From assembly GCA_002452615.1 (NCBI GenBank), contig DKES01000014.1, forward strand, positions 1-42,668: a stretch of 42,668 nucleotides of DNA, in the 5' to 3' direction. Below, piece by piece: positions 21-42,000 of the stretch. Under the pieces are notes generated by a model. The model did no database searches and had not been told where the DNA came from. It was given only the letters and a program-made list of their open reading frames with translations. Source of the DNA: Patescibacteria group bacterium UBA6816. GTDB lineage: Bacteria; Patescibacteriota; Patescibacteriia; UBA2591; UBA6264. The first letter of the stretch is position 1. Every line of letters starts with the position of its first letter. A program made the translations under genes and the position numbers.

Positions 21-79
21 ATGTTTTTATGTTCTATGTTTTTATGTTCTATGTTTATATGTTTTATGTTTTTTGTTCT
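21..79. repeat. 15-bp tandem repeat ATGTTTTTATGTTCT x2 followed by degenerate copies, overlapping the 3' end of the recombinase gene
   Basis: Identical units at 21-35 and 36-50. Degenerate ATGTTT(A/T)T units continue to about 79. Confidence 0.8.
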
Positions 80-1011
80 CGGCGTTGTTTGCCGTGGAAA
101 GCTTGATAAACTTCTTTTAAGTGTTGGTCACTAATATGAGTATAAATTTGAGTAGTGGTGATATTTTTATGGCCAAGTAATTCTTGAACCGCTCTTAAGT
201 CAGCCCCACTAGAAAGAAGGTCAGTCGCATAGGAGTGACGCATACTATGCGGTGTAATTTTTTTAGTAATGCCAGCAATTTTAGAATATTTTTTAATTAA
301 TCTTTGGATTGAGCGTGGAGTTAATCCTAAGCTATCTTTTTTAGAAGATTGTTTTTTAGCGGCGCGGTCATAGCGAATAAATAAATTAGGTTCAGTGTCT
401 GGGCGGACTGATAAATATTTTTTTAACCAATAACGGGCTTGGTTAGAAAGAAAAACAATTCGCCAACGACTACCTTTACCCTGAACACTAAATTCGTTTT
501 TTTCTAAATTTATATCTTCTTTTTTTAAATTAGCTAGTTCTGAGACCCGTAAACCCGTGGAAAAAAATAATTCTAAAATAGCTTTGTCCCTGAATTTTAA
601 AATATCTTTTTGCTTTATTTCTAAGGGAGCTTGTAAAAGTTTTTCTAAATCATTTCCCTCTAAAAAAGAAATTTGGCGCTCTTGGGTTTTAGCTAAATCA
701 ATTTTTTCCGGGGCTAAAGTTTTAATATCTCTTTTGGCTAAATATTTAAGAAAAACCCGTAAAGCAATTAAGTGGTAATTTTGAGTTGCCGGGGATAAGT
801 TTCCTTGGCGCGGGCTTTTTAAGCGGGAAAGCCAAAGTCGCCATTGTCTTACTTTTTCCAAAGTAATTTCTGAGGGAGAATTAACTTGTGATTGCTGAAG
901 AAATCTTTTTAAATAAAAACGATAGTTGCGAATAGTTAATTTACTCGCTCCTTTTTCAATTTCCAAGTGTTCTAAAAAATCTTGAACTAATTGTTCTACA
1001 TTTTCCGACAT
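64..1011 (-). CDS. site-specific tyrosine recombinase, XerC/XerD family
   Basis: 315-aa ORF. Has an N-terminal core-binding domain and a C-terminal catalytic signature (RVSELANL ... HSMRHSYATDLL ... LLGHKNITTTQIYTH). Confidence 0.9.
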   Translation of the reverse strand: MSENVEQLVQDFLEHLEIEKGASKLTIRNYRFYLKRFLQQSQVNSPSEITLEKVRQWRLWLSRLKSPRQGNLSPATQNYHLIALRVFLKYLAKRDIKTLAPEKIDLAKTQERQISFLEGNDLEKLLQAPLEIKQKDILKFRDKAILELFFSTGLRVSELANLKKEDINLEKNEFSVQGKGSRWRIVFLSNQARYWLKKYLSVRPDTEPNLFIRYDRAAKKQSSKKDSLGLTPRSIQRLIKKYSKIAGITKKITPHSMRHSYATDLLSSGADLRAVQELLGHKNITTTQIYTHISDQHLKEVYQAFHGKQRREQKT

Positions 1012-7415: not shown

Positions 7416-9014
7416 ATGCCTAAAAAGAAAAAAGTTTCACCTAAAAAAAGTAAAAAAAAGGTTTCACCTTCAAAAACAAAAAAAATAACTCAAGTTAAGC
7501 CTAAAAAGAAAAAAGTTTCACCTAAAAAAAGTAAAAAAAAGGTTTCATCTTCAAAAACAAAAAAATCAAAAACTAGGCGGCTTTTAAAGTCTCGGCGCGG
7601 AAGACCTCGTTTAACACAAAAGAAAACTCAGGACCAGCCAGAGAAAAAAAATAAAAAGAAATATCAGCCAGAAATTCTTAGAGGAATGAAAGATGTTTTA
7701 CCAGAAGAAACTAAGATTTGGAATTATGTTCTTAGAAGAGCCAGGGATTTAGCCAAGGAATATAGTTTTGAAGAAATTTTTTCTCCTATTCTTGAAGAAC
7801 AAGCCCTTTTTGAAAAGGCAACTGGATTGACTTCAGACATTGTGGAAAAACAAATGTATCAGTTTACTGACCGAGGAGGGAATAAAATAGTGCTTCGGCC
7901 AGAATTAACTCCCTCTATTGTCAGAGCTTATATTGAACAGGGAATGTTTAATCTTTCTCAACCAGTAAAAATATTTTATTTTGGGCCAGCTTTTCGTTAT
8001 GAAAGACCACAAGCCGGAAGAATGAGACAATTTTATCAGTTTGGGTTGGAAACAGTGGGGTCGGCTAACCCTTCGGTTGATGCTCAATTAATTTTATTTG
8101 CTCAAGTTTTGTTTAATTTATTAAATTTAAAAGTTAATATTCAAGTTAATAGTTTAGGGTGTCCGGTTTGTCGTCAGCCATATCGGAATAAATTAGTACG
8201 TTATTTAAAATCTCATCAAAAATCACTTTGTCCTGATTGTCAAAAGAGATTAAAAAGAAATCCTTTAAGGATTTTAGATTGTAAAAATGAAAAATGCCAA
8301 GAAATTATTCAGCAAGCCCCTCAATTAGTTGATGATATTTGTCCGGATTGTCGACAACATTTTGTAAAAGTTTTAGAGTATCTTGATGAAACTAATGTGG
8401 TTTATAAAGTTAATCCTTATTTGGTGCGAGGACTAGATTATTATACGCGGACAGTTTTTGAATTTTTACCTAATCGAGAAGGAATTAAAAAAGAAATTAT
8501 AACCTCGCCTCAAGTTGAGGAAGAAAAAAAAGAGCCGGTTAAAAAGGAAGAAAGGGAAATAAAAGAAGAAAAATTAGGGGCTCAATCCGCTTTAGGGGGA
8601 GGGGGAAGATATGATAATTTAGTAGAAAACCTGGGAGGACGACCTACTCCAGCGGCTGGTTTTGCTTGTGGTTTTGAGAGAATTATTGAAGAATTAAAAA
8701 TTCAAAGAGTAAGTGTTCCTCATTCTCGGCCACCACAAGTATTTTTAGCCCAAATTGGAGAAATTGCTTCTCGTCAAGCTTTAAGATTATTTGAAGAATT
8801 ACGACAACAAGGAATTAGAGTCAAGGAAAATGTAAATAAAACCAGCTTAAAAGCACAAATGGAAATGGCTAATAAGTTGGGAGTAAAAATGACTTTGATT
8901 CTTGGTCATCAAGAAGTTTTAGACCAAACCATTATTATTCGTAATATGCACACTGGTAATCAAGAAATTGTAGACCAGGAAAAAATAATTAAAGAATTAA
9001 AGAAAAGATTATAA
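7416..9014 (+). CDS. hisS: histidine--tRNA ligase with a Lys-rich N-terminal extension
   Basis: 532 aa. The class II HisRS core begins near ILRGMKDVLPEE. Other motifs: LRPELTPS, FRYERPQAGRMRQFYQFG, NPLRILDCK, GGGRYD and a C-terminal anticodon-binding domain. The first ~95 aa are poly-Lys/Ser/Pro. Confidence 0.92.
   Translation: MPKKKKVSPKKSKKKVSPSKTKKITQVKPKKKKVSPKKSKKKVSSSKTKKSKTRRLLKSRRGRPRLTQKKTQDQPEKKNKKKYQPEILRGMKDVLPEETKIWNYVLRRARDLAKEYSFEEIFSPILEEQALFEKATGLTSDIVEKQMYQFTDRGGNKIVLRPELTPSIVRAYIEQGMFNLSQPVKIFYFGPAFRYERPQAGRMRQFYQFGLETVGSANPSVDAQLILFAQVLFNLLNLKVNIQVNSLGCPVCRQPYRNKLVRYLKSHQKSLCPDCQKRLKRNPLRILDCKNEKCQEIIQQAPQLVDDICPDCRQHFVKVLEYLDETNVVYKVNPYLVRGLDYYTRTVFEFLPNREGIKKEIITSPQVEEEKKEPVKKEEREIKEEKLGAQSALGGGGRYDNLVENLGGRPTPAAGFACGFERIIEELKIQRVSVPHSRPPQVFLAQIGEIASRQALRLFEELRQQGIRVKENVNKTSLKAQMEMANKLGVKMTLILGHQEVLDQTIIIRNMHTGNQEIVDQEKIIKELKKRL
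7419..7567 (+). repeat. 81-bp in-frame tandem duplication inside the hisS 5' extension
   Basis: Copy 1 at 7419-7499 and copy 2 from 7500 are identical except for one C/T difference over about 67 nt. Both encode PKKKKVSPKKSKKKVS(P/S)SKTKK. Confidence 0.9.
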
Positions 9015-15049: not shown

Positions 15050-17683
15050 ATGACGGAAAAAGATTTTTTTAAAAATTTGTCAGACCAAGAATCAGATAAG
15101 GGGAAAGAAGAAGAAATAGAGGTTCCAGATTTAACAAAAGAAGAAATAGAAGAAGTAGAAAAGTTAGACAAAGAAAAAATAGAAGATTTAGAAAAAGAAA
15201 TAAATAAAGACCTAGAAAAAGAAAAGGTAGAAAAGGAAACAAAAAAAGAACCAGCAAAAGAAAAAGAAAGTGATAAAAAGGAAAAGACAGAAGAGAAAAA
15301 AGAAAGTAAAAAAGAGAAAACTTTTCAAGAACTTCAACAAGCCAGGGATAATTTAATTAAAGCTGAGATTAATTTTAAAAAATATCAAGGAATTAAAGGA
15401 TTTTTTAAATCAATTGGAGATGGTAAAGACAAGGTTGAACAAGAATATGAAAAAGCAAAAAAGGAATATGAAGGGAAAAAGGCAGAAATTTTTGGAGAAA
15501 ACCTCAATTCATTTTTAAATGAAAGATTAGTTTTAACAGATTTGCGGGCCCAAGAATATAATCAGGAAAAAGGATTTGGTCAAAAATTTTATGATAGCTA
15601 TAAAAAATTAGGGGAATGGAATATTGCCCGACTTTTAGGTAAAGAAACTATTGAAAAATTAGAAAGTCAAGAAGATGACCCCCGAGTTAAGAAAATTCTT
15701 AAAGGAACCGGAAGATTTTTAACCAAAACTCTTTCTGTTAGATTGGGAATTAGTTTTGGTTTATTAGGAGCGGGGTTTGCTTTTGGTGGGGGAATTGGTT
15801 TAGCTGGCGCATTAGCGGCTCGAAAAGGTTTAATTGGAGTAGGAACTGGTTTTGGTACTTATGATTTAATAAAAATGTTTGGTGAAAAAAAAGAATTAAA
15901 AAGGGGGATGAAAAAAGAATTAACCCCAGCAGAATTAGCAAAAATGAACAACGATGAAATTTTAGAAAGAATGACTTTTCTTGAACAAGAGGCCGAAAAT
16001 ACCGGAGAAGAATTAGGTCAGAAAAATAAATTATACAACTCTTTAAAAGAGCAATTTTTAAGAAATAATAAAGAAGTTGACCCTTCTGATAAATTTGATA
16101 TTTTAATAAAAGGGATGGATGAGAAATTAGAAGAAGCAAGAAAAAGGGCTCAAGAAAAAGATTTGAAAAGAAAGGGGATTGCCATAGGAGTGGGAACATT
16201 TATGGGTAGTGGTTTGTTTGGTCAGGCCCTGGGAGAGGGAAAGGACTTTATTTCAGATTTATTTAAAGGAGAAGCCGTTACAGCTGCAGCAACAGAAGAA
16301 TTTGTTTCTAATACCGCGACCGAAGGAGTAGATTTAGCATCAGAGGTTCCAGTTGAAGAAGTGCCAGTATCAGAGGCTCCTATTGAAGAATTAAGTGAAG
16401 AGCCTTTAACAGAATCAGAAATAGAAAAAGAAATAAAAGATTTAAAAGCGGAAAAAGAAGGAATTGCAGCTGGTTTAACTGCGGCCGCAGAAGAAAGTGA
16501 GGAAGTTTTTGTTCCAGAATCATTAGAATATCAAGGTGGAACAAGTATTTGGAAAGAAGTAGAAAATCAATTAAAAGAGAGAAGTGTTTTTAAACAAGTT
16601 TTTGAAGGAGCAGACCAAGCTGAACAGACTCATGCCATTGATTATTTTAAAGATAAAATTGCGGCTGACCCGCAAGAATATGGATTAGCTGAAGGAGTAG
16701 ACGTAGATGAATTAACCGCGGACCAAATGGAAAAAATTGATTGGAATAAATTAATGGAATTAGAAGACCCAGGAGAGGTTGATAAGGCTTTTCCTGAATT
16801 AAGTGATTCTGCCAAACAAAATATTATAGAGAATGATAAAATTTTACAAGAATATGGGCAAAAAACCGGGGAAGCACTAGACACTGATACGGTAGACCAA
16901 GTTTTAAATGATGTCAAAGAAGCGGGTGGAGTAGAAAATTATTTAAGGTCAGAACAGGTTAGTCAAGCCACTAGTTTAAGTGAATTAAATGAACTGGGGG
17001 TGGAAAATATGACTGAAGAACAAGAACGATTATGGGCAATCTATAATGAATACTTAGGAACTAATATTGATGATTATACTCCGGTTTCAGAAGGAGCTCA
17101 AAAAGGGGCCGAAGAATATTTAAATAGTTTAGACCCGGAACAATATGATCAATATTCAGATATTAAAGCGGCTGTTCAAGAAATTCGGGCGAATCACCTT
17201 AATGAAGAATTACAAAAAGGGCAAGGATTTTTACATTTTGGCCAGCCAGACCCGGAAAAATTAATAGAACATGTTCAGGCCCTAACAGAAACCTATAATT
17301 TAGGAGAAAAAGAACAAGCATTTTTTTCCCAATGGTTAGCCGGGGAAGACGGAGTTTTAAAAGCAGATGATTTTAAAGATTTTCTTAGCGGAGAAAAATT
17401 AGATAATTTTAATTTAGAGAAATTTGATGAATCCATTGAAATCTGGCAAGAAAAGGCTCAAAGTATTGAATTGCCCCAAGAAAATATTTGGGAGCCAAAA
17501 TATATTATAAATGAACAAGGTGAAAAACAACTAGTTAATATTAGAGCCGCAGAAGATGGTTATCAAATAGATAGTGTGGGAAACGGAGAAGCTGACGGCA
17601 ATATTTTTATTGGACACAGTAGCGGTTTTTATAAGGCAGATGAAATAAGACAAATTTTACCAGGAGCCCAAATAGAGGGCTAA
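15050..17683 (+). CDS. hypothetical large protein: K/E-rich coiled-coil N-terminus, Gly-zipper hydrophobic segments, long acidic C-terminal region
   Basis: 877-aa uninterrupted ORF. Hydrophobic Gly-rich stretches are encoded at about 15731-15880 and 16174-16240. No known catalytic motif recognised. Confidence 0.8.
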   Translation: MTEKDFFKNLSDQESDKGKEEEIEVPDLTKEEIEEVEKLDKEKIEDLEKEINKDLEKEKVEKETKKEPAKEKESDKKEKTEEKKESKKEKTFQELQQARDNLIKAEINFKKYQGIKGFFKSIGDGKDKVEQEYEKAKKEYEGKKAEIFGENLNSFLNERLVLTDLRAQEYNQEKGFGQKFYDSYKKLGEWNIARLLGKETIEKLESQEDDPRVKKILKGTGRFLTKTLSVRLGISFGLLGAGFAFGGGIGLAGALAARKGLIGVGTGFGTYDLIKMFGEKKELKRGMKKELTPAELAKMNNDEILERMTFLEQEAENTGEELGQKNKLYNSLKEQFLRNNKEVDPSDKFDILIKGMDEKLEEARKRAQEKDLKRKGIAIGVGTFMGSGLFGQALGEGKDFISDLFKGEAVTAAATEEFVSNTATEGVDLASEVPVEEVPVSEAPIEELSEEPLTESEIEKEIKDLKAEKEGIAAGLTAAAEESEEVFVPESLEYQGGTSIWKEVENQLKERSVFKQVFEGADQAEQTHAIDYFKDKIAADPQEYGLAEGVDVDELTADQMEKIDWNKLMELEDPGEVDKAFPELSDSAKQNIIENDKILQEYGQKTGEALDTDTVDQVLNDVKEAGGVENYLRSEQVSQATSLSELNELGVENMTEEQERLWAIYNEYLGTNIDDYTPVSEGAQKGAEEYLNSLDPEQYDQYSDIKAAVQEIRANHLNEELQKGQGFLHFGQPDPEKLIEHVQALTETYNLGEKEQAFFSQWLAGEDGVLKADDFKDFLSGEKLDNFNLEKFDESIEIWQEKAQSIELPQENIWEPKYIINEQGEKQLVNIRAAEDGYQIDSVGNGEADGNIFIGHSSGFYKADEIRQILPGAQIEG

Positions 17684-32022: not shown

Positions 32023-32940
32023 ATGAAATATCCTCGTTATCTTAATTTAAGCACTCAAGAAATAAAAAAAAGAATAGCCCAAGCCAATGAGTTATTAAAA
32101 TTTTGTCGAGTTTGTCCTCGCCGTTGCGGGGCTAATCGCGCTCAAAATGAAAAGGGCTATTGTTATTTAGGCAAAAATCCAGTTATTTTTAAATCTCATT
32201 CAGATTTTGAAATGGAAAATTTTTTCACCGGAGAAAACGGTTCCGGGGCAATTGATTTTAATTATTGTAATCTTTCTTGTGTTTTTTGTCGCAGTTTTGA
32301 AATTAGCCAGTTGGAAAGAGGCAGAAAGGTGCCTCAAAAAGAAATGAACAGTAAAGAGTTAGCAAAAATAATGATTGATTTACAAAAAAGAGGTTGTCAT
32401 AATATTGACTTAGTTAATCCTACTTCTCAGGTCCCGCAAATTTTACAAGCCCTGCCCTTAGCAATTGACCAAGGATTAAAAATTCCTTTGATTTATAATA
32501 CTAATGCTTATGATTCAGTAGAAACGCTAAAATTATTAGAGGGAATAATTGATATTTATTTACCTGATTTAAAATATTCAGATGATAAAATTGCGGAAAA
32601 ATATTCTCACGTGCCACAATATTTTTATTTTGCCCAAAAAGCAATTATAGAAATGTACCGACAAGTAGGAAATTTAAAATTTAATGAAAATGGTTTAGTT
32701 AAATCAGGTCTTTTGGTGCGTCATTTAATTTTACCTAATAATATTTCTGGAGCAGAAAAGGTTTTTAAATTTTTAAAAAAAGAAGTCTCCCCCCAGGTCA
32801 GAATTAATATTATGAATCGTTATAATCCTTGTTGGCAAGCTAAAGATTATCATAAAATTAATCGACCGATTACTACTTCTGAGTATGAGAAAGTAGTTAA
32901 ATTAGCTGAAAAATATAAATTAAATTGGTTTACAGAATAA
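32023..32940 (+). CDS. radical SAM protein, PflX / pyruvate formate-lyase activase-like
   Basis: 305 aa. Has an N-terminal Cys cluster CRVCPRRCGANR...GYC and the radical SAM CxxxCxxC motif (CNLSCVFC). Confidence 0.85.
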   Translation: MKYPRYLNLSTQEIKKRIAQANELLKFCRVCPRRCGANRAQNEKGYCYLGKNPVIFKSHSDFEMENFFTGENGSGAIDFNYCNLSCVFCRSFEISQLERGRKVPQKEMNSKELAKIMIDLQKRGCHNIDLVNPTSQVPQILQALPLAIDQGLKIPLIYNTNAYDSVETLKLLEGIIDIYLPDLKYSDDKIAEKYSHVPQYFYFAQKAIIEMYRQVGNLKFNENGLVKSGLLVRHLILPNNISGAEKVFKFLKKEVSPQVRINIMNRYNPCWQAKDYHKINRPITTSEYEKVVKLAEKYKLNWFTE

Positions 32941-32970: not shown

Positions 32971-34407
32971 ATGAAACAAGATAATTTTAAAAAACAACCA
33001 TTAATTAGAAAACCTGCTGTGGCTGGTTTTTTTTATCCAGCTAATTCAGAAGTGCTTGCTGGTCAAATAGAAGAATTATTAAATCAAGCTGAAAATAAAG
33101 GATTAAATAAAGAAATAAAAATGATGATTTTGCCCCACGCCGGATATGCGGCTTCAGGTTTGGTGGCCGCGACAGGATTTAAAAGTATTCAGGGAAAAAA
33201 TTTTAAAAATATTTTTATTATTAATCCCTCTCATCAAGATTGGTTTTCCGGAGTGGCGCTTGATAATCATGATTTTTGGCAAACTCCTTTGGGAAAAGTA
33301 AGGGTTAATCAAGATTTAAGGGAAAAATTAAATAAAGAGGCTCAAAATATTTTTATTCGAGAAAAAGCTCATTCTCAAGAACATGCTGCTGAAATTATGC
33401 TTCCTTTTTTACAAAAAATTTTAAATGATTTTAAAATTATTCCCCTTACTGTTGGGCAAATAAGTAAAAAGGAAATTTTTACTTTAGCCCAAGGTTTAAA
33501 AAAATATTTAACGGAAAAAGATTTAATAATTATTAGTTCTGATTTATCTCATTACCCGGATTATGAAACAGCTAATCAAGTGGACCAGCAGACTATTCAA
33601 ACAATTTTAAGCGGACAAGAGGAAAAATTTGAAAAAACAATTAAAAATTTACAAAGCCAAAATTTACCAGGTTTAGACACTTGTGCTTGCGGAGAAAACG
33701 CTATTAAAATAGGCTTAATTTTAGCTGATTTAATGAAATGGAAAAATATTGAATTATTAAAATATGCTAATTCTGGAGATATTTTAGAAGATAAAAGCAG
33801 GGTGGTAGGATATGCGAGTATAGCTTTTTCAATTGGAGATAAAGAGCCAAAGCTTTCTTTAAGGGCAAAGAAAAAATTAATAGAAATTGCCCGCGAAAGC
33901 ATTAAGGCTTGTTTTCGGGGAAAAGATTTTGAATTTAATAATATTTTTCAGGAAATAAAAACTCCTCAAGGAGCTTTTGTGACTTTAAAAAAGAATGGTC
34001 AGTTAAGAGGATGTTTAGGAAGGGTGATTGAAGAAAAACAACCTCTTTATAAGGTTGTGGCTGAAATGGCCCGGGCGGCGGCTTTTGAAGATAATCGTTT
34101 TACCTCCCTTCAAGAAGAAGAAATAGAAGAATTAGACATTGAAATTTCTGTTTTATCCCCGCTTAAAAAAATAAAAGACCCGAAAAAAGAAATTAAAATA
34201 GGCCAACATGGAGTTGTGGTTTCTCAAGGAGCTCAAGGCGGAGTTTTTCTTCCTCAAGTGGCCACAGAAAACAACTGGGATTTAGAAGAGTTTATGAATA
34301 ATCTTTGTCTGCATAAAGCAGGTTTAAATCCTGAGGCATGGAAAAGAGGAGAAGTTGATATTTATGTTTATACGGCTGAAATTTTTACTGAAAAAGATTT
34401 AGAATAA
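32971..34407 (+). CDS. fusion protein: Memo-like (AmmeMemoRadiSam protein B) N-terminal domain plus AMMECR1 (protein A) C-terminal domain
   Basis: 478 aa. Memo motifs: PAVAGFFYP, ILPHAGYAASG, IISSDLSHY and VVGYASIAF. AMMECR1 motifs from about residue 295: GAFVTLKKNGQLRGCLG and GGVFLPQVA. Confidence 0.85.
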   Translation: MKQDNFKKQPLIRKPAVAGFFYPANSEVLAGQIEELLNQAENKGLNKEIKMMILPHAGYAASGLVAATGFKSIQGKNFKNIFIINPSHQDWFSGVALDNHDFWQTPLGKVRVNQDLREKLNKEAQNIFIREKAHSQEHAAEIMLPFLQKILNDFKIIPLTVGQISKKEIFTLAQGLKKYLTEKDLIIISSDLSHYPDYETANQVDQQTIQTILSGQEEKFEKTIKNLQSQNLPGLDTCACGENAIKIGLILADLMKWKNIELLKYANSGDILEDKSRVVGYASIAFSIGDKEPKLSLRAKKKLIEIARESIKACFRGKDFEFNNIFQEIKTPQGAFVTLKKNGQLRGCLGRVIEEKQPLYKVVAEMARAAAFEDNRFTSLQEEEIEELDIEISVLSPLKKIKDPKKEIKIGQHGVVVSQGAQGGVFLPQVATENNWDLEEFMNNLCLHKAGLNPEAWKRGEVDIYVYTAEIFTEKDLE

Positions 34408-38340: not shown

Positions 38341-41300
38341 ATGAAAATGATTAGATGGTTTAAAGAAATATCAATTAAAAATGTTCCTCAAGTTGGAGGT
38401 AAAAATGCCTCTTTAGGGGAAATGTATCAACGTTTAACCAGAAGGGGAGTAAAAATTCCCAATGGTTTTGCCACCACTGCAGAGGCTTATTGGTATTTTT
38501 TAAAAGAGGCGGGATTAAAAGAAAAAATTACTCAAATTTTAAAGGAATTAGATGTAAAAAATGTGGCTAAATTAAAAAAGGCCGGAGTAGAGATAAGAAA
38601 AATGATTTTAAGCGCTTCTTTACCAGAAGATTTTAAAAAACAAATTGTTCAAGCTTATCAAAAACTTTCTCAAGAATCAGGAGTGAAAAATTTAGATGTG
38701 GCGGTGCGGAGTTCTGCTACGGCCGAGGACATGCCCACGGCTAGTTTTGCCGGACAAATGGAAACTTATCTAAATATTAAAGGAGAAAAAGAACTGTTAA
38801 AAGTAGTACAAAAATGTATTGCTTCTTTATTTACTAACCGAGCTATTGTTTATCGCGAAGAAAAAGGATTTGACCATATGAAAGTGGCTCTTTCTGTTTG
38901 TGTCCAAAAAATGATTCGTTCTGATTTAGCTTGTTCCGGAGTTATTTTCTCTTGTCACACTGACTCTGGTTTTGCTGATGCAAGTGTGATTACTTCTTCT
39001 TGGGGTTTAGGAGAGAACATTGTTCAGGGAAAAGTAAGTCCTGATGAATTTATTGTTTATGAGCCCCTTTTAGAGAATTATCGGCCAATTGTCAGTAAAA
39101 ATTTAGGAGCTAAAGAATGGACCATGATTTATAATCCTCGAGGAAAAAAACCAGTTAAAAATATTAGGACTCCTAAAAACAAGAGAAATAAATTTACTTT
39201 AACTGATGATGAGATTTTAGAACTGGGAAAATATTCAGTGATTATTGAAAAATATTATAGTCGGTCCATGGACATGGAATGGGCTAAAGACGGTCAAGAC
39301 CAACAACTTTATATTCTTCAGGCCCGTCCAGAGACAGTTCATTCCCAGCGTTCTTTAGACGTTTTAGAAGAGTATGTTTTTTTACCTCAAGCAAAAAAAG
39401 AAACAGGAAATTCAGTTAAAGACAAACTTATTATTTCCGGGGTAGCGGTGGGTTCTAAAATTTCCCAAGGCCAGGCAAATATAATTGAAAACGTTAAAGA
39501 TATTTCTCAATTTAAACCGGGACAAATTTTAGTAACAGAAATGACTGACCCAGATTGGTTGCCTATTATGAAAAGAGCTAAAGGAATTGTTACTAATGCC
39601 GGAGGCCGCACGTGTTTTACTGGTGAAACTAAAATATTAACCAATAAAGGATTTTTATCAATAAAGGAAATTGTTGGTAAATATAAAAAAGAGGATTACA
39701 AGGTTCTTTCGCTTAATAAAGAAAGTTTAAAAATGGAATGGAAAAAGGTAATTGATGGCATGGAAAGAAAATCTAAACCTATTTCTGTAGATATTTCTCA
39801 AACCGGAAAAATGAAGGGTAATATTTTAAAAGTTACACCAGACCATAAATTTTTAACTTTTAAAAATAGAAAATTAATTTCAAAAGAATTAAATGATTTA
39901 TTAAGAGATAATGAGTCAATTTTAAGCTCTACTAAAATACCAGTTGAAAAACAAAAAAACATCAAGACTGAACTCGGCTATTTTTTAGGAGGAATAATGA
40001 CTGATGGAAGTATTTATCTTAGTAAAAGTCATGGAGAAATACAGTTTATCCAAAAAAACACCTCTAAAAAGGCAGATTTCATAAAAAAAATGAATAAATG
40101 TTTAAAAAGTGTTTTTAATTATTCATTTCATGTTTCAATAAAAAAATATTCTAATGGTTTTATTCGTAATAAATTTGTCTGTGGGCAAGCTAATGCTTAT
40201 CGATGTCACAGTAAATCTATAGCAGAAGAAATGTTAAAACAAGAGAAAAATATTGTTTCGTCTCTATTATATTCTTCTAAAGAATTTGTCTATAATTTTT
40301 TGGCGGGAGTAATTGATGGTGATGGTTCTTATAGAAATAATAGTAATAGAATAAATATTTATATTTCTAAAGATAACTTACTTCAGGCCGTAACCACTGC
40401 CTGCCTAAGATTGGGCATTGATTTTCAGGTTTCTTCTAATCGCAGTATTCATAATTTTCAAATAGTTAGCGGGATAGAAGATTTATTTAAATATACGACC
40501 AGGGTTAAGGGAAATTATAGAAAACGAATTAAATTTGGGACAAGATTTTTGGCTGCTAAGCAAGTGTTAGAAGACATCAAAGAAAAGATAAATTATAAAG
40601 GAAGAATAATTCCTTATCTTAATAAAAATCTTTTAATAGATGTTCAAAAAATAAAAAATTATCTTATTCCAATGATTGCCGGTCAGAAAGAAAATCATGA
40701 ATTAACCAAGATTATTAGTTCGGATTTGAAAATGTTAAGAGTTAAAAAGGTTGATTCTTTAAATCACCAAAATGTTTATAATATTACCGTAGAAGATAAT
40801 CATAATTATGTTGTTTTTACAGAAAGATATACTCCAGTTGTTGTAAATAATTGTCATGCGGCGATTGTTTCTCGAGAATTAGGAATTCCTTGTGTAGTTG
40901 GAACAGGAAGGGCTACGGCTTTAGTCAAAAAAAATCAAAAAGTGACTATTTCTTGTGCTGAAGGGGAAGTGGGTCATGTTTATAAAGGTTTATTGCCTTT
41001 TGAAATAAAAAAAACCAGGATTAAAAATTTTAAACACCCGCGGACAAAAATAATGATGAATGTGGGCGAACCAGAACAAGCGTTCACTTTTTCTTTTATC
41101 CCTAATCAAGGAGTGGGTTTAGCGCGAGAAGAATTTATTATTAATAATTATATTAAAATTCATCCTTTAGCCTTGATTAATTATGCCCGATTAAAAGACC
41201 AGAAAACAAAAAAACAAATTGATCAAATTACCGCTGGTTATGATAATAAAAAACAATTTTATATTGATAAGTTAGCAGAAGGAATTGCGCGAATTGCTGC

Positions 41301-42000
41301 AGCTTTTTACCCCAAAGAAGTAATTGTTCGTTTTTCTGATTTTAAAACCAATGAATACGCTAATTTAATTGGGGGAAAATTATTTGAACCCCAAGAAGAA
41401 AATCCTATGATTGGTTGGCGGGGAGCTAGTCGTTATTATGCTCCTGATTTTGCCCAAGCTTTTATTTTAGAATGCCGAGCCATTAAAAAAGTAAGAGAAG
41501 AAATGGGACTAGATAACGTTGTGGTGATGGTCCCTTTTTGTCGAACAATTGAAGAAGGAAAAAAAGTTTTAAAAATTATTGACCAGCAAGGATTAAGAGA
41601 TAAAAGAAAAAAGATTAAACCTTTATTAGTTTATGTTATGTGTGAAATTCCAGCCAATGTTTTATTAGGAAAAGAGTTTGCTAAAATTTTTGACGGATTT
41701 TCTATTGGGAGCAATGATTTAACTCAATTAACTTTGGGTTTAGACCGAGATTCTAGTTTAGTGGCTCATATTTTTAATGAAAGAAATGAGGCGGTTAAAA
41801 AAATGATTAGGCAAATTATTAAAATTGCCCACCAACATAAGAAAAAAGTTGGTATTTGCGGCCAAGCCCCTAGTGATTTTCCTGATTTTGCCCAATTTTT
41901 AGTTAGAGAGGGAATTGATTCTATTTCTTTAACTCCAGATACTGTCATTAAAACCAGTTTAGAGATTTTAAAAACAGAAAAGAAAATGAATAAGAAATAA
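38341..42000 (+). CDS. ppsA: phosphoenolpyruvate synthase (pyruvate, water dikinase), intein-containing precursor
   Basis: 1219 aa. Has an N-terminal ATP-grasp domain (VGGKNASLGEM, VAVRSSATAEDMPTASFAGQ, MDMEWAKDG). The phosphohistidine loop GGRT/CHAAIVSRELGIP is split by 413 aa. The C-terminal PEP-utilising TIM barrel carries FSIGSNDLTQL. Confidence 0.93.
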   Translation: MKMIRWFKEISIKNVPQVGGKNASLGEMYQRLTRRGVKIPNGFATTAEAYWYFLKEAGLKEKITQILKELDVKNVAKLKKAGVEIRKMILSASLPEDFKKQIVQAYQKLSQESGVKNLDVAVRSSATAEDMPTASFAGQMETYLNIKGEKELLKVVQKCIASLFTNRAIVYREEKGFDHMKVALSVCVQKMIRSDLACSGVIFSCHTDSGFADASVITSSWGLGENIVQGKVSPDEFIVYEPLLENYRPIVSKNLGAKEWTMIYNPRGKKPVKNIRTPKNKRNKFTLTDDEILELGKYSVIIEKYYSRSMDMEWAKDGQDQQLYILQARPETVHSQRSLDVLEEYVFLPQAKKETGNSVKDKLIISGVAVGSKISQGQANIIENVKDISQFKPGQILVTEMTDPDWLPIMKRAKGIVTNAGGRTCFTGETKILTNKGFLSIKEIVGKYKKEDYKVLSLNKESLKMEWKKVIDGMERKSKPISVDISQTGKMKGNILKVTPDHKFLTFKNRKLISKELNDLLRDNESILSSTKIPVEKQKNIKTELGYFLGGIMTDGSIYLSKSHGEIQFIQKNTSKKADFIKKMNKCLKSVFNYSFHVSIKKYSNGFIRNKFVCGQANAYRCHSKSIAEEMLKQEKNIVSSLLYSSKEFVYNFLAGVIDGDGSYRNNSNRINIYISKDNLLQAVTTACLRLGIDFQVSSNRSIHNFQIVSGIEDLFKYTTRVKGNYRKRIKFGTRFLAAKQVLEDIKEKINYKGRIIPYLNKNLLIDVQKIKNYLIPMIAGQKENHELTKIISSDLKMLRVKKVDSLNHQNVYNITVEDNHNYVVFTERYTPVVVNNCHAAIVSRELGIPCVVGTGRATALVKKNQKVTISCAEGEVGHVYKGLLPFEIKKTRIKNFKHPRTKIMMNVGEPEQAFTFSFIPNQGVGLAREEFIINNYIKIHPLALINYARLKDQKTKKQIDQITAGYDNKKQFYIDKLAEGIARIAAAFYPKEVIVRFSDFKTNEYANLIGGKLFEPQEENPMIGWRGASRYYAPDFAQAFILECRAIKKVREEMGLDNVVVMVPFCRTIEEGKKVLKIIDQQGLRDKRKKIKPLLVYVMCEIPANVLLGKEFAKIFDGFSIGSNDLTQLTLGLDRDSSLVAHIFNERNEAVKKMIRQIIKIAHQHKKKVGICGQAPSDFPDFAQFLVREGIDSISLTPDTVIKTSLEILKTEKKMNKK
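39613..40851 (+). mobile_element. intein with a LAGLIDADG homing-endonuclease domain (413 aa) inside ppsA
   Basis: Block A is CFTGETKILT and block B is TPDH. LAGLIDADG motifs: LGYFLGGIMTDGSIY and FLAGVIDGDGSY. Block F is VYNITVEDNHNYVV. The C-terminus is VVVNN, followed by the +1 Cys at 40852. Confidence 0.85.

Follow-up and report, generated by a model that had tools for sequence, protein, structure and literature searches.

Inteins that interrupt phosphoenolpyruvate (PEP) synthase have been described before. Their insertion site is published as GG[TRM]T/CHAA, the slash marking the junction (a notation that we follow throughout), in a study that also gives about 30% identity as an approximate threshold for allelic inteins and in which an RtcB intein clusters with the prokaryotic PEP synthase inteins (Gallot-Lavallee et al., PNAS 2023, PMC10710043). 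In NCBI, the archaeal members already carry the name 'intein-containing phosphoenolpyruvate synthase'. For the Methanocaldococcaceae, InBase has the 'Mja PEP' intein, from Methanocaldococcus jannaschii; this PEP synthase intein reportedly splices without a penultimate His (work attributed to Chen, Benner and Perler, 2000). Three further papers (PMC3655853, PMC5498576, PMC517821) deal with inteins of other genes only. Here we analyzed a stretch of 42,668 nucleotides from Patescibacteria group bacterium UBA6816 (contig DKES01000014.1), hereafter the window, whose ppsA gene encodes a PEP synthase (PpsA; pyruvate,water dikinase) containing one intein. We consider it likely that this insert is a class 1, endonuclease-bearing intein of the PpsA GGxT/CH allele, capable of both splicing and homing. 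It adds a new but unexceptional member to an intein allele that is already known and widespread.

The ppsA precursor open reading frame (ORF) extends over 38341..42000 on the plus strand and encodes 1219 aa plus stop, compared with 791-814 aa in intein-free orthologues and 792 aa in E. coli PpsA, in agreement with the surplus of about 410 aa pointed out in a preliminary description of this DNA. Translation and alignment to the solved PpsA of N. meningitidis (2OLS) delimit an N-extein (aa 1-424; 38341..39612, +) ending in ...IVTNAGGRT, and these together with Pfam delimit a C-extein (aa 838-1219 plus stop; 40852..42000, +) starting with CHAAIVSRELGIP. The host domains are recovered by Pfam on both sides of the insert (PPDK_N, 2.7e-123; PEP-utilizers, 5.1e-23; PEP-utilizers_C, 9.8e-64), and the mobile PEP-utilizers domain is cut into two stretches by it. 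The phosphorylated catalytic residue of E. coli PpsA is His421, within the motif ...TNRGGRT-C420-H421-AAIIARELGIP. Removing 39613-40851 in silico joins GGRT/CHAAIVSRELGIP, which aligns without gap to E. coli PpsA residues 416-430 and to 2OLS, and the two codons at 40852..40857 (+) correspond to C420 and H421, that is, to the +1 Cys and, directly after it, the catalytic phospho-His. As both alignments place the junction there, the intein interrupts the phosphohistidine loop after its Thr and before its Cys-His, exactly as had been proposed from the sequence. The spliced protein has its top matches, at 77-78% identity over 100% of the length, among PpsA proteins that NCBI labels Patescibacteria group, and a host in the candidate phyla radiation (CPR)/Patescibacteria fits the reduced bacterial genome that had been supposed. 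The unspliced precursor should be inactive, its catalytic His being parted from the GGRT loop. We also noticed one PpsA with an empty insertion site (P0049; P numbers are protein labels and L numbers locus labels) that reads GGRT-A-HAAI; therefore, the +1 Cys is dispensable for the enzyme itself.

The insert itself (39613..40851, +; 413 aa, precursor aa 425-837) is a Hint splicing domain split by a LAGLIDADG homing endonuclease, as supported by translation, Pfam, homologues and structure modelling. Its translation begins with CFTGETKILT and ends with TPVVVNN, between the flanks ...VTNAGGRT and CHAAIVSRELGIP. Block A, CFTGETKILTNKG, occupies 39613..39651 (+) and starts with Cys1 (precursor Cys425, codon 39613-39615), the nucleophile of the first splicing step; all 81 inteins of the family begin with CF. 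Block B, TPDH (Thr75...His78 of the intein), lies at 39835..39846 (+) and is conserved in family alignments. The first LAGLIDADG motif, LGYFLGGIMTDGSIY (39973..40017, +), contains the invariant Asp131-Gly132, and the second, FLAGVIDGDGSY (40297..40332, +), found both in the family alignment and by Pfam, contains the invariant stretches F229-G232 and D235-G238. The segment VYNITVEDNHNYVV (40774..40815, +), which we take to correspond to the usual intein block F, has Asn390 in place of the Asp of many inteins and keeps His397. Block G, TPVVVNN (40831..40851, +), supplies the terminal Asn413, preceded by Asn412 and not by His. All the motifs announced in the preliminary description, including the Cys that follows VVVNN, are thus present at the expected places.

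Domain models agree with this anatomy. The search with intein and LAGLIDADG hidden Markov models that had been suggested gave Intein_splicing at E 6.7e-17 (62 bits, cut-off 35.8) and LAGLIDADG_3 (PF14528) at E 2e-7 (31.6-35.2 bits, cut-off 22.5; intein residues 225-276), and since both score above their cut-offs the insert is not a chance match. The features of a class 1 intein are found together here: Cys at position 1, T-x-x-H in block B, a C-terminal Asn followed by Cys+1, a Hint fold and an exact in-frame removal that restores the motif of the host protein; the penultimate His, common but not obligatory in this class, is replaced by Asn412. As in two-motif LAGLIDADG monomers, two motifs end in an acidic residue and Gly (...IMTD131G and ...IDGD237G, both pairs invariant in a 13-sequence family alignment), with profile and fold matches. 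Every invariant LAGLIDADG residue is kept in the window intein, in support of the view that the endonuclease motifs are intact, and alignments show a full-length endonuclease domain, free of deletions when compared with the other members. No RNA gene was detected at the ppsA locus by Rfam and tRNA scans, which gave four tRNAs in the whole window.

An AlphaFold2 model of the intein, built on 13 family sequences, is confident (predicted local distance difference test, pLDDT, 92.4; predicted template modelling score, pTM, 0.91). Foldseek returned PI-PfuI (1dq3) as the top match in the PDB (E 1.9e-20), together with the TliVMA and PhoVMA inteins (7qss/7qst), PI-TkoII (2cw7) and PI-SceI, and the endonuclease lobe of the model matches the monomeric LAGLIDADG enzyme I-DmoI with a template modelling score, TM(target), of 0.65-0.71. 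A sequence search of the PDB with the intein gave no match at E<=0.01, and the solved inteins were reached only via the structure model. Of the 80 columns with at least 90% conservation in the family, 3 have a deviating residue in the window intein, the number in other Patescibacteria-like copies being 3-8. Because the fold is confident, the Asp-Gly pairs are invariant and deviations at conserved columns are few, the element appears to be a full-length, undecayed and bifunctional intein; domain models, homologues, structure and the exact restoration of the host motif all uphold the initial view of a full-length LAGLIDADG intein.

We then consider how the precursor would mature. Translation would give a 1219-aa precursor in which the intein parts the swivelling phosphohistidine domain just one residue ahead of the catalytic His. 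Cys1 would convert the Thr424-Cys425 bond to a thioester, the +1 Cys838 would attack this thioester to form a branched intermediate by transesterification, the terminal Asn837 (intein Asn413) would cyclize and release the intein, and a final S-to-N shift would yield ...GGRT-CHAAIVSR... in an active PpsA of about 806 aa. Block B Thr75/His78 and the block-F His would assist, the family doing without the penultimate His. We regard splicing of the window intein as very probable.

In another explanation the insert does not splice at all and is a permanent domain or a disabling insertion, ppsA being a pseudogene or encoding a protein with a new function. The absence of the penultimate His and the Asn at the usual block-F Asp position would agree with such a case. 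Results showed, however, that the last two residues among the 81 family inteins are NN in 44, CN in 26 and HN in a single one, so that the penultimate residue is not His in 80 of the 81, while Cys1 and the terminal Asn are invariant and the +1 residue is Cys in 80 and Ser in 1. Moreover, a penultimate His is missing from about 5% of functional inteins, where its restoration can even impair splicing (PMC4031507). In the window Cys1, Asn413, Cys+1 and the T..H of block B are all intact, this block B pair being invariant in the 81 family members as well, and the precursor ORF is open over 3.66 kb at 31% GC. Strong purifying selection acts on the exteins of intein-bearing genes: the ratio of nonsynonymous to synonymous substitution rates (dN/dS) is 0.03-0.12 in pairs that are clean and full-length and reaches about 0.25 in some other pairs, truncated loci having given no usable comparison. 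Finally, a protein that stays unspliced should have no activity, and still well over 100 species genomes retain the gene. Since the nucleophiles are intact and the exteins of such genes are held by purifying selection, a non-splicing insert is extremely improbable.

The penultimate Asn had been pointed out at first, as had the richness of this copy in Asn, Lys and Ile. Both are correct as observations: intein and exteins differ in Asn (8.5 vs 4.3%), Lys (13.6 vs 11.0%) and Ile (9.7 vs 8.9%), and in GC (26.3 vs 34.0%). They are nevertheless traits of the whole family and not peculiar to the window copy, as intein GC is below extein GC by 1-17 points, typically 3-9, in about 70 hosts with one exception (L027), and tracks host GC from 0.23 to 0.63. 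A low intein GC being general in the family and following the host, it is no mark of recent import, and we rejected a recent foreign origin deduced from composition. We also observed that, at the block-F position (VYN...NHNY) that is Asp in many inteins, nearly all members of the family have Asn; added to the lack of a penultimate His, this makes their assisting residues an unusual set.

We then looked at how widely this allele is distributed. A genome scan with one genome per GTDB species revealed 148 tblastn-confirmed loci encoding a relative of the window intein, the best 80 of which were inspected in detail. These best 80 encode inteins 40-69% identical to that of the window over all 413 residues, and in 80/80 the junction is GG[RKSM]T/CF...N/[CS]HAAI inside PpsA. 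As judged by record titles, the hosts include Patescibacteria (Liptonbacteria, Nealsonbacteria, Buchananbacteria, Parcubacteria), DPANN archaea (Woesearchaeota, Nanoarchaeota, Forterrea, 'ainarchaeum'), many cyanobacteria (Nostoc, Synechocystis, Scytonema, Crocosphaera), Usitatibacter and other Burkholderiales, and Methylococcaceae. A profile run against 1.84 billion representative proteins gave 52 at E<=1e-30, followed by a sharp fall to generic intein similarity. The window intein has the attributes of this allele, which we call the a-site allele: a PEP synthase host, the identical insertion point and homology at or above about 30% identity. The element is therefore neither rare nor unusual, as the allele is widespread (148 loci) and already in the literature (PMC10710043).

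A few further observations concern the family as a whole. The +1 Cys is replaced by Ser (N/SHAAI) in a few members (P0005, L079, P0160). Several metagenome-assembled genomes have titles ('uncultured Gammaproteobacteria', 'Methanosarcinales', 'Thermoplasmatales', 'Acetobacteraceae') that conflict with their placement in our trees (L001, L007, L013, L021, L027, L070, L077); the PpsA and intein of these loci fall among CPR, DPANN or Nostoc sequences, and their labels look unreliable, or the contigs mis-binned. RtcB inteins found in P0007, P0151 and P0288 are 33-38% identical to the PpsA family and sit at ...T[VT]/CFPG...N/CHGAGRTMS; they are non-allelic relatives at a similar x/CH junction. PpsA also has a second intein site, in the ATP-grasp domain (AEDxP/SISE...THN/[ST]ASFAGQ; P0049, P0064, P0136, P0142), with Ser1 and a canonical His-Asn end. 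The intein at that site seems not to be related to the one at the a-site, and the two occur together in P0136 and P0142, the ATP-grasp-site insert of P0136 being much shorter.

Evidence on mobility came from the comparison with close relatives. The nearest PpsA orthologues (P0015-P0017, 77-78% extein identity) are intein-free, and the 119 closest clusters of PpsA contain only 5 other carriers of an a-site intein. Contigs were retrieved for two of the orthologues, P0016 and P0017, and in both the gene order GroES-GroEL-small ORF-DUF4870-ppsA is the same as in the window. The intein-bearing P0024 (L001 type) is 94.9% identical in its extein to the intein-free P0017, and the corresponding loci, L001 and L086, share 91% DNA identity over the exteins. 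Thus the intein is polymorphic for presence and absence between close relatives. The empty ppsA site of L084/L086 reads ...GCCGGAGGAAGAACA/TGCCATGCGGC..., and is also given as ...ACTAATGCCGGAGGAAGAACA/TGCCATGCGGCTATC... When the intein-bearing L001 was compared with the intein-free L086, mismatch density around the junction revealed no clear co-conversion tract.

The endonuclease domain has dN/dS values of 0.04-0.38 across 63 close family pairs, similar to those of the Hint domain, and this shows that the endonuclease is maintained by selection in the family. In several pairs the inteins are more alike than their exteins at the nucleotide level: L030/L042 (97 vs 92%), L056/L058 (96 vs 77-88%) and L034/L059 (96 vs 87-91%), as well as the Patescibacteria-like pairs L011/L012 (85.5 vs 76.5%) and L014/L072 (83 vs 78%), where L011 and L012 are labelled Patescibacteria and L072 only 'bacterium'. 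Intein synonymous divergence (dS) is 3-8 times below that of the exteins in the closest pairs. This indicates a recent exchange of inteins between related hosts. After splicing, the two-motif LAGLIDADG endonuclease of the freed intein (Asp131, Asp237) would probably cut intein-free ppsA at the GGxGGxAGxACx/TGYCAYGC region, and repair from an intein-bearing copy would propagate the element. The selection on the domain in the family and the pairs with inteins more alike than their exteins speak indirectly for such cleavage.

Whether this cycle still runs in the window copy is less certain than its splicing. The intein may still splice while its endonuclease is by now inactive, as in a resident and immobile element late in the homing cycle, which would be kept only since an imprecise loss would destroy the active site of PpsA. 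Such a state would agree with the joint divergence of inteins and exteins between the window and L001 (69% and 78% at the amino acid level, 71 vs 77% at the nucleotide level), which carries no sign of recent transfer, and with the three substitutions at conserved positions, of which A122G and G186N fall close to motif 1 within the endonuclease domain; endonuclease activity is, besides, unreadable from sequence. Three deviations are, however, at the low end of the range in Patescibacteria-like copies, both Asp-Gly pairs of the catalytic motifs and all invariant family residues are kept, the endonuclease lobe is confidently modelled and of full length, and the endonuclease is under purifying selection elsewhere in the family. 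An immobile intein is therefore unlikely, although it is the alternative that we take most seriously, and we lean, with some reserve, towards an endonuclease still active in the window copy.

The history of the window copy was read from neighbour-joining trees of inteins and exteins, which lack support values and have to be read with caution. In both trees the window and L001 are sisters within a Patescibacteria clade, and their inteins (69% amino acid identity) are less similar than their exteins (78%); the window copy therefore looks vertically inherited since its common ancestor with L001. It would have been passed on within a Patescibacteria sub-lineage that includes the L001 genome, close relatives having lost it or never gained it. 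A recent archaeal donor was considered and rejected, given the position of the two sisters in both trees.

Several of these results weigh against a splicing and homing intein as the complete description of the window copy. The lower nucleotide identity of the inteins (71%) than of the exteins (77%) between the window and L001 is what vertical descent would leave, and no recent homing shows in it directly. L001 is the closest sequenced relative of the intein at only 69% identity, and for this reason selection on the window lineage is not measurable. Only one of the two LAGLIDADG lobes is reached by a Pfam model, and Hom_end (PF05204) is borderline, with 20.1 bits on the whole protein and 22.6 on the intein alone for a cut-off of 21.1. 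Moreover, the analysis shows the anatomy, homology, insertion site and fold of the intein, its polymorphism for presence and absence and, in the family, the purifying selection on the endonuclease, while we infer splicing and DNA cleavage by this very copy. The trees, as said, are also to be counted here.

Cross-domain traffic of the intein had been suggested as well, and this claim has to be divided. DPANN and bacterial inteins interleave in the trees. Eight DPANN loci (L017, L024, L029, L053, L069, L073, L078, L080) encode a divergent, archaeal-type PpsA with 39-44% extein identity to the window, whereas their inteins are 42-51% identical to the window intein, like those in bacterial-type PpsA; in L017, L024, L029 and L053 the intein is more similar to the window than the extein is. 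The a-site allele is thus common to Bacteria and Archaea and its sharing across domains is real, while nothing signals a recent import into the window genome, the copy belonging to the Patescibacteria clade in both trees.

The location of the intein immediately beside the catalytic His raises another explanation, in which splicing, and with it PpsA activity, is gated by redox or another signal, for example through a Cys1/Cys+1 disulfide, the intein having been co-opted for regulation. Cys1 and Cys+1 are almost universally kept, the allele is long-lasting within cyanobacterial and Burkholderiales lineages, and PMC4031507 discusses conditional protein splicing of other inteins. Inteins in general, however, insert at catalytic motifs, which selfish persistence explains, the Ser+1 variants speak against an obligatory disulfide, the closest relatives manage without the intein, and nothing specific to a switch was seen for the window intein. 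We therefore hold a conditional switch to be quite improbable and retain the splicing and homing intein as the preferred reading. In a broader and similarly speculative version, the a-site intein could gate PpsA maturation (redox/temperature), within a family that would be exchanged between co-occurring Patescibacteria and DPANN archaea, would jump to RtcB at a similar x/CH site and would serve as a marker of gene flow. If true, it would mean intein gating in organisms that depend on PpsA at the PEP-pyruvate node, and a tractable gene-flow marker between the Patescibacteria and DPANN episymbiont radiations.

In annotating the window, the labels fusion, pseudogene and oversized protein should be avoided: ppsA is an intact gene, giving an enzyme of about 806 aa after splicing. 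An intein allele spread over both prokaryotic domains gains another Patescibacteria host. Intein specialists may find use in several by-products, which are a penultimate His lost throughout the family, an endonuclease under purifying selection, inteins that in several pairs are younger than the genes that host them, the RtcB relatives and the second PpsA site; none of these is specific to the window and none overturns current understanding.

Other genes of the window encode PNPase, HisRS, an MtaB-like protein, FtsA, FtsZ, GyrB and GroEL, a set that marks the DNA as bacterial. HisRS (7416-9014) has an N-terminal extension of about 85 aa ahead of the start of the hisS model. An 877-aa ORF at 15050-17683 (+) has no match in NCBIfam or Pfam. 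A radical-SAM ORF (32023-32940, +) is followed by a 478-aa ORF (32971-34407) that fuses AmmeMemoRadiSam system proteins B and A, and a gene of the tyrosine recombinase / phage-integrase family lies at the left edge of the window (64-1011, -).

Comparison with the described systems places the window intein more precisely. The window junction, GGRT/CHAA, falls inside the consensus published for PEP synthase inteins, and the link with RtcB inteins reported there is also seen here. That study (PMC10710043) treats the PEP synthase allele in passing, as a neighbour of the eukaryotic RtcB intein, without the Patescibacteria copy or the present distribution.

Among archaeal proteins, one representative cluster of the profile search contains the 'intein-containing phosphoenolpyruvate synthase' of Methanotorris formicicus (Methanocaldococcaceae), whose intein has the junctions DDGGLT/CIEGD...IVVFN/CHAAI and is 31% identical to that of the window over the full length (E 3e-51). 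The suggestion that a methanococcal PEP synthase intein occupies the same site is thus borne out for this member of the same family as M. jannaschii, and for it only. A protein search with the M. formicicus intein and its flanks gave 7 matches, none of them methanococcal, the word index being swamped by extein words. The two elements share the host enzyme, the insertion point GGxT/C...N/CHAAI, the size (411 vs 413 aa), the architecture of a Hint domain with a two-motif LAGLIDADG endonuclease, a block F of the form VYN...NHNY and a penultimate residue other than His (Phe in M. formicicus, Asn in the window). They differ in their first residues (CI in M. formicicus, CF in the window), in sequence, with a divergence down to 31% identity, and in their hosts: the window belongs to a mesophilic-type, low-GC Patescibacteria host with a bacterial-type PpsA, while M. 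formicicus is a hyperthermophilic methanogen.

Among solved structures, the endonuclease-bearing inteins PI-PfuI, Tli/Pho VMA, PI-TkoII and PI-SceI have in common with the window model the Hint horseshoe and the double lobe of LAGLIDADG alpha-beta-beta-alpha-beta-beta-alpha units, with Foldseek E values from 1.9e-20 to 1e-10 and TM scores of 0.5-0.72. They differ from it in sequence, with just 11-17% identity, and in the protein that they interrupt, which is ribonucleotide reductase, V-ATPase or DNA polymerase in the solved cases and PpsA in the window.

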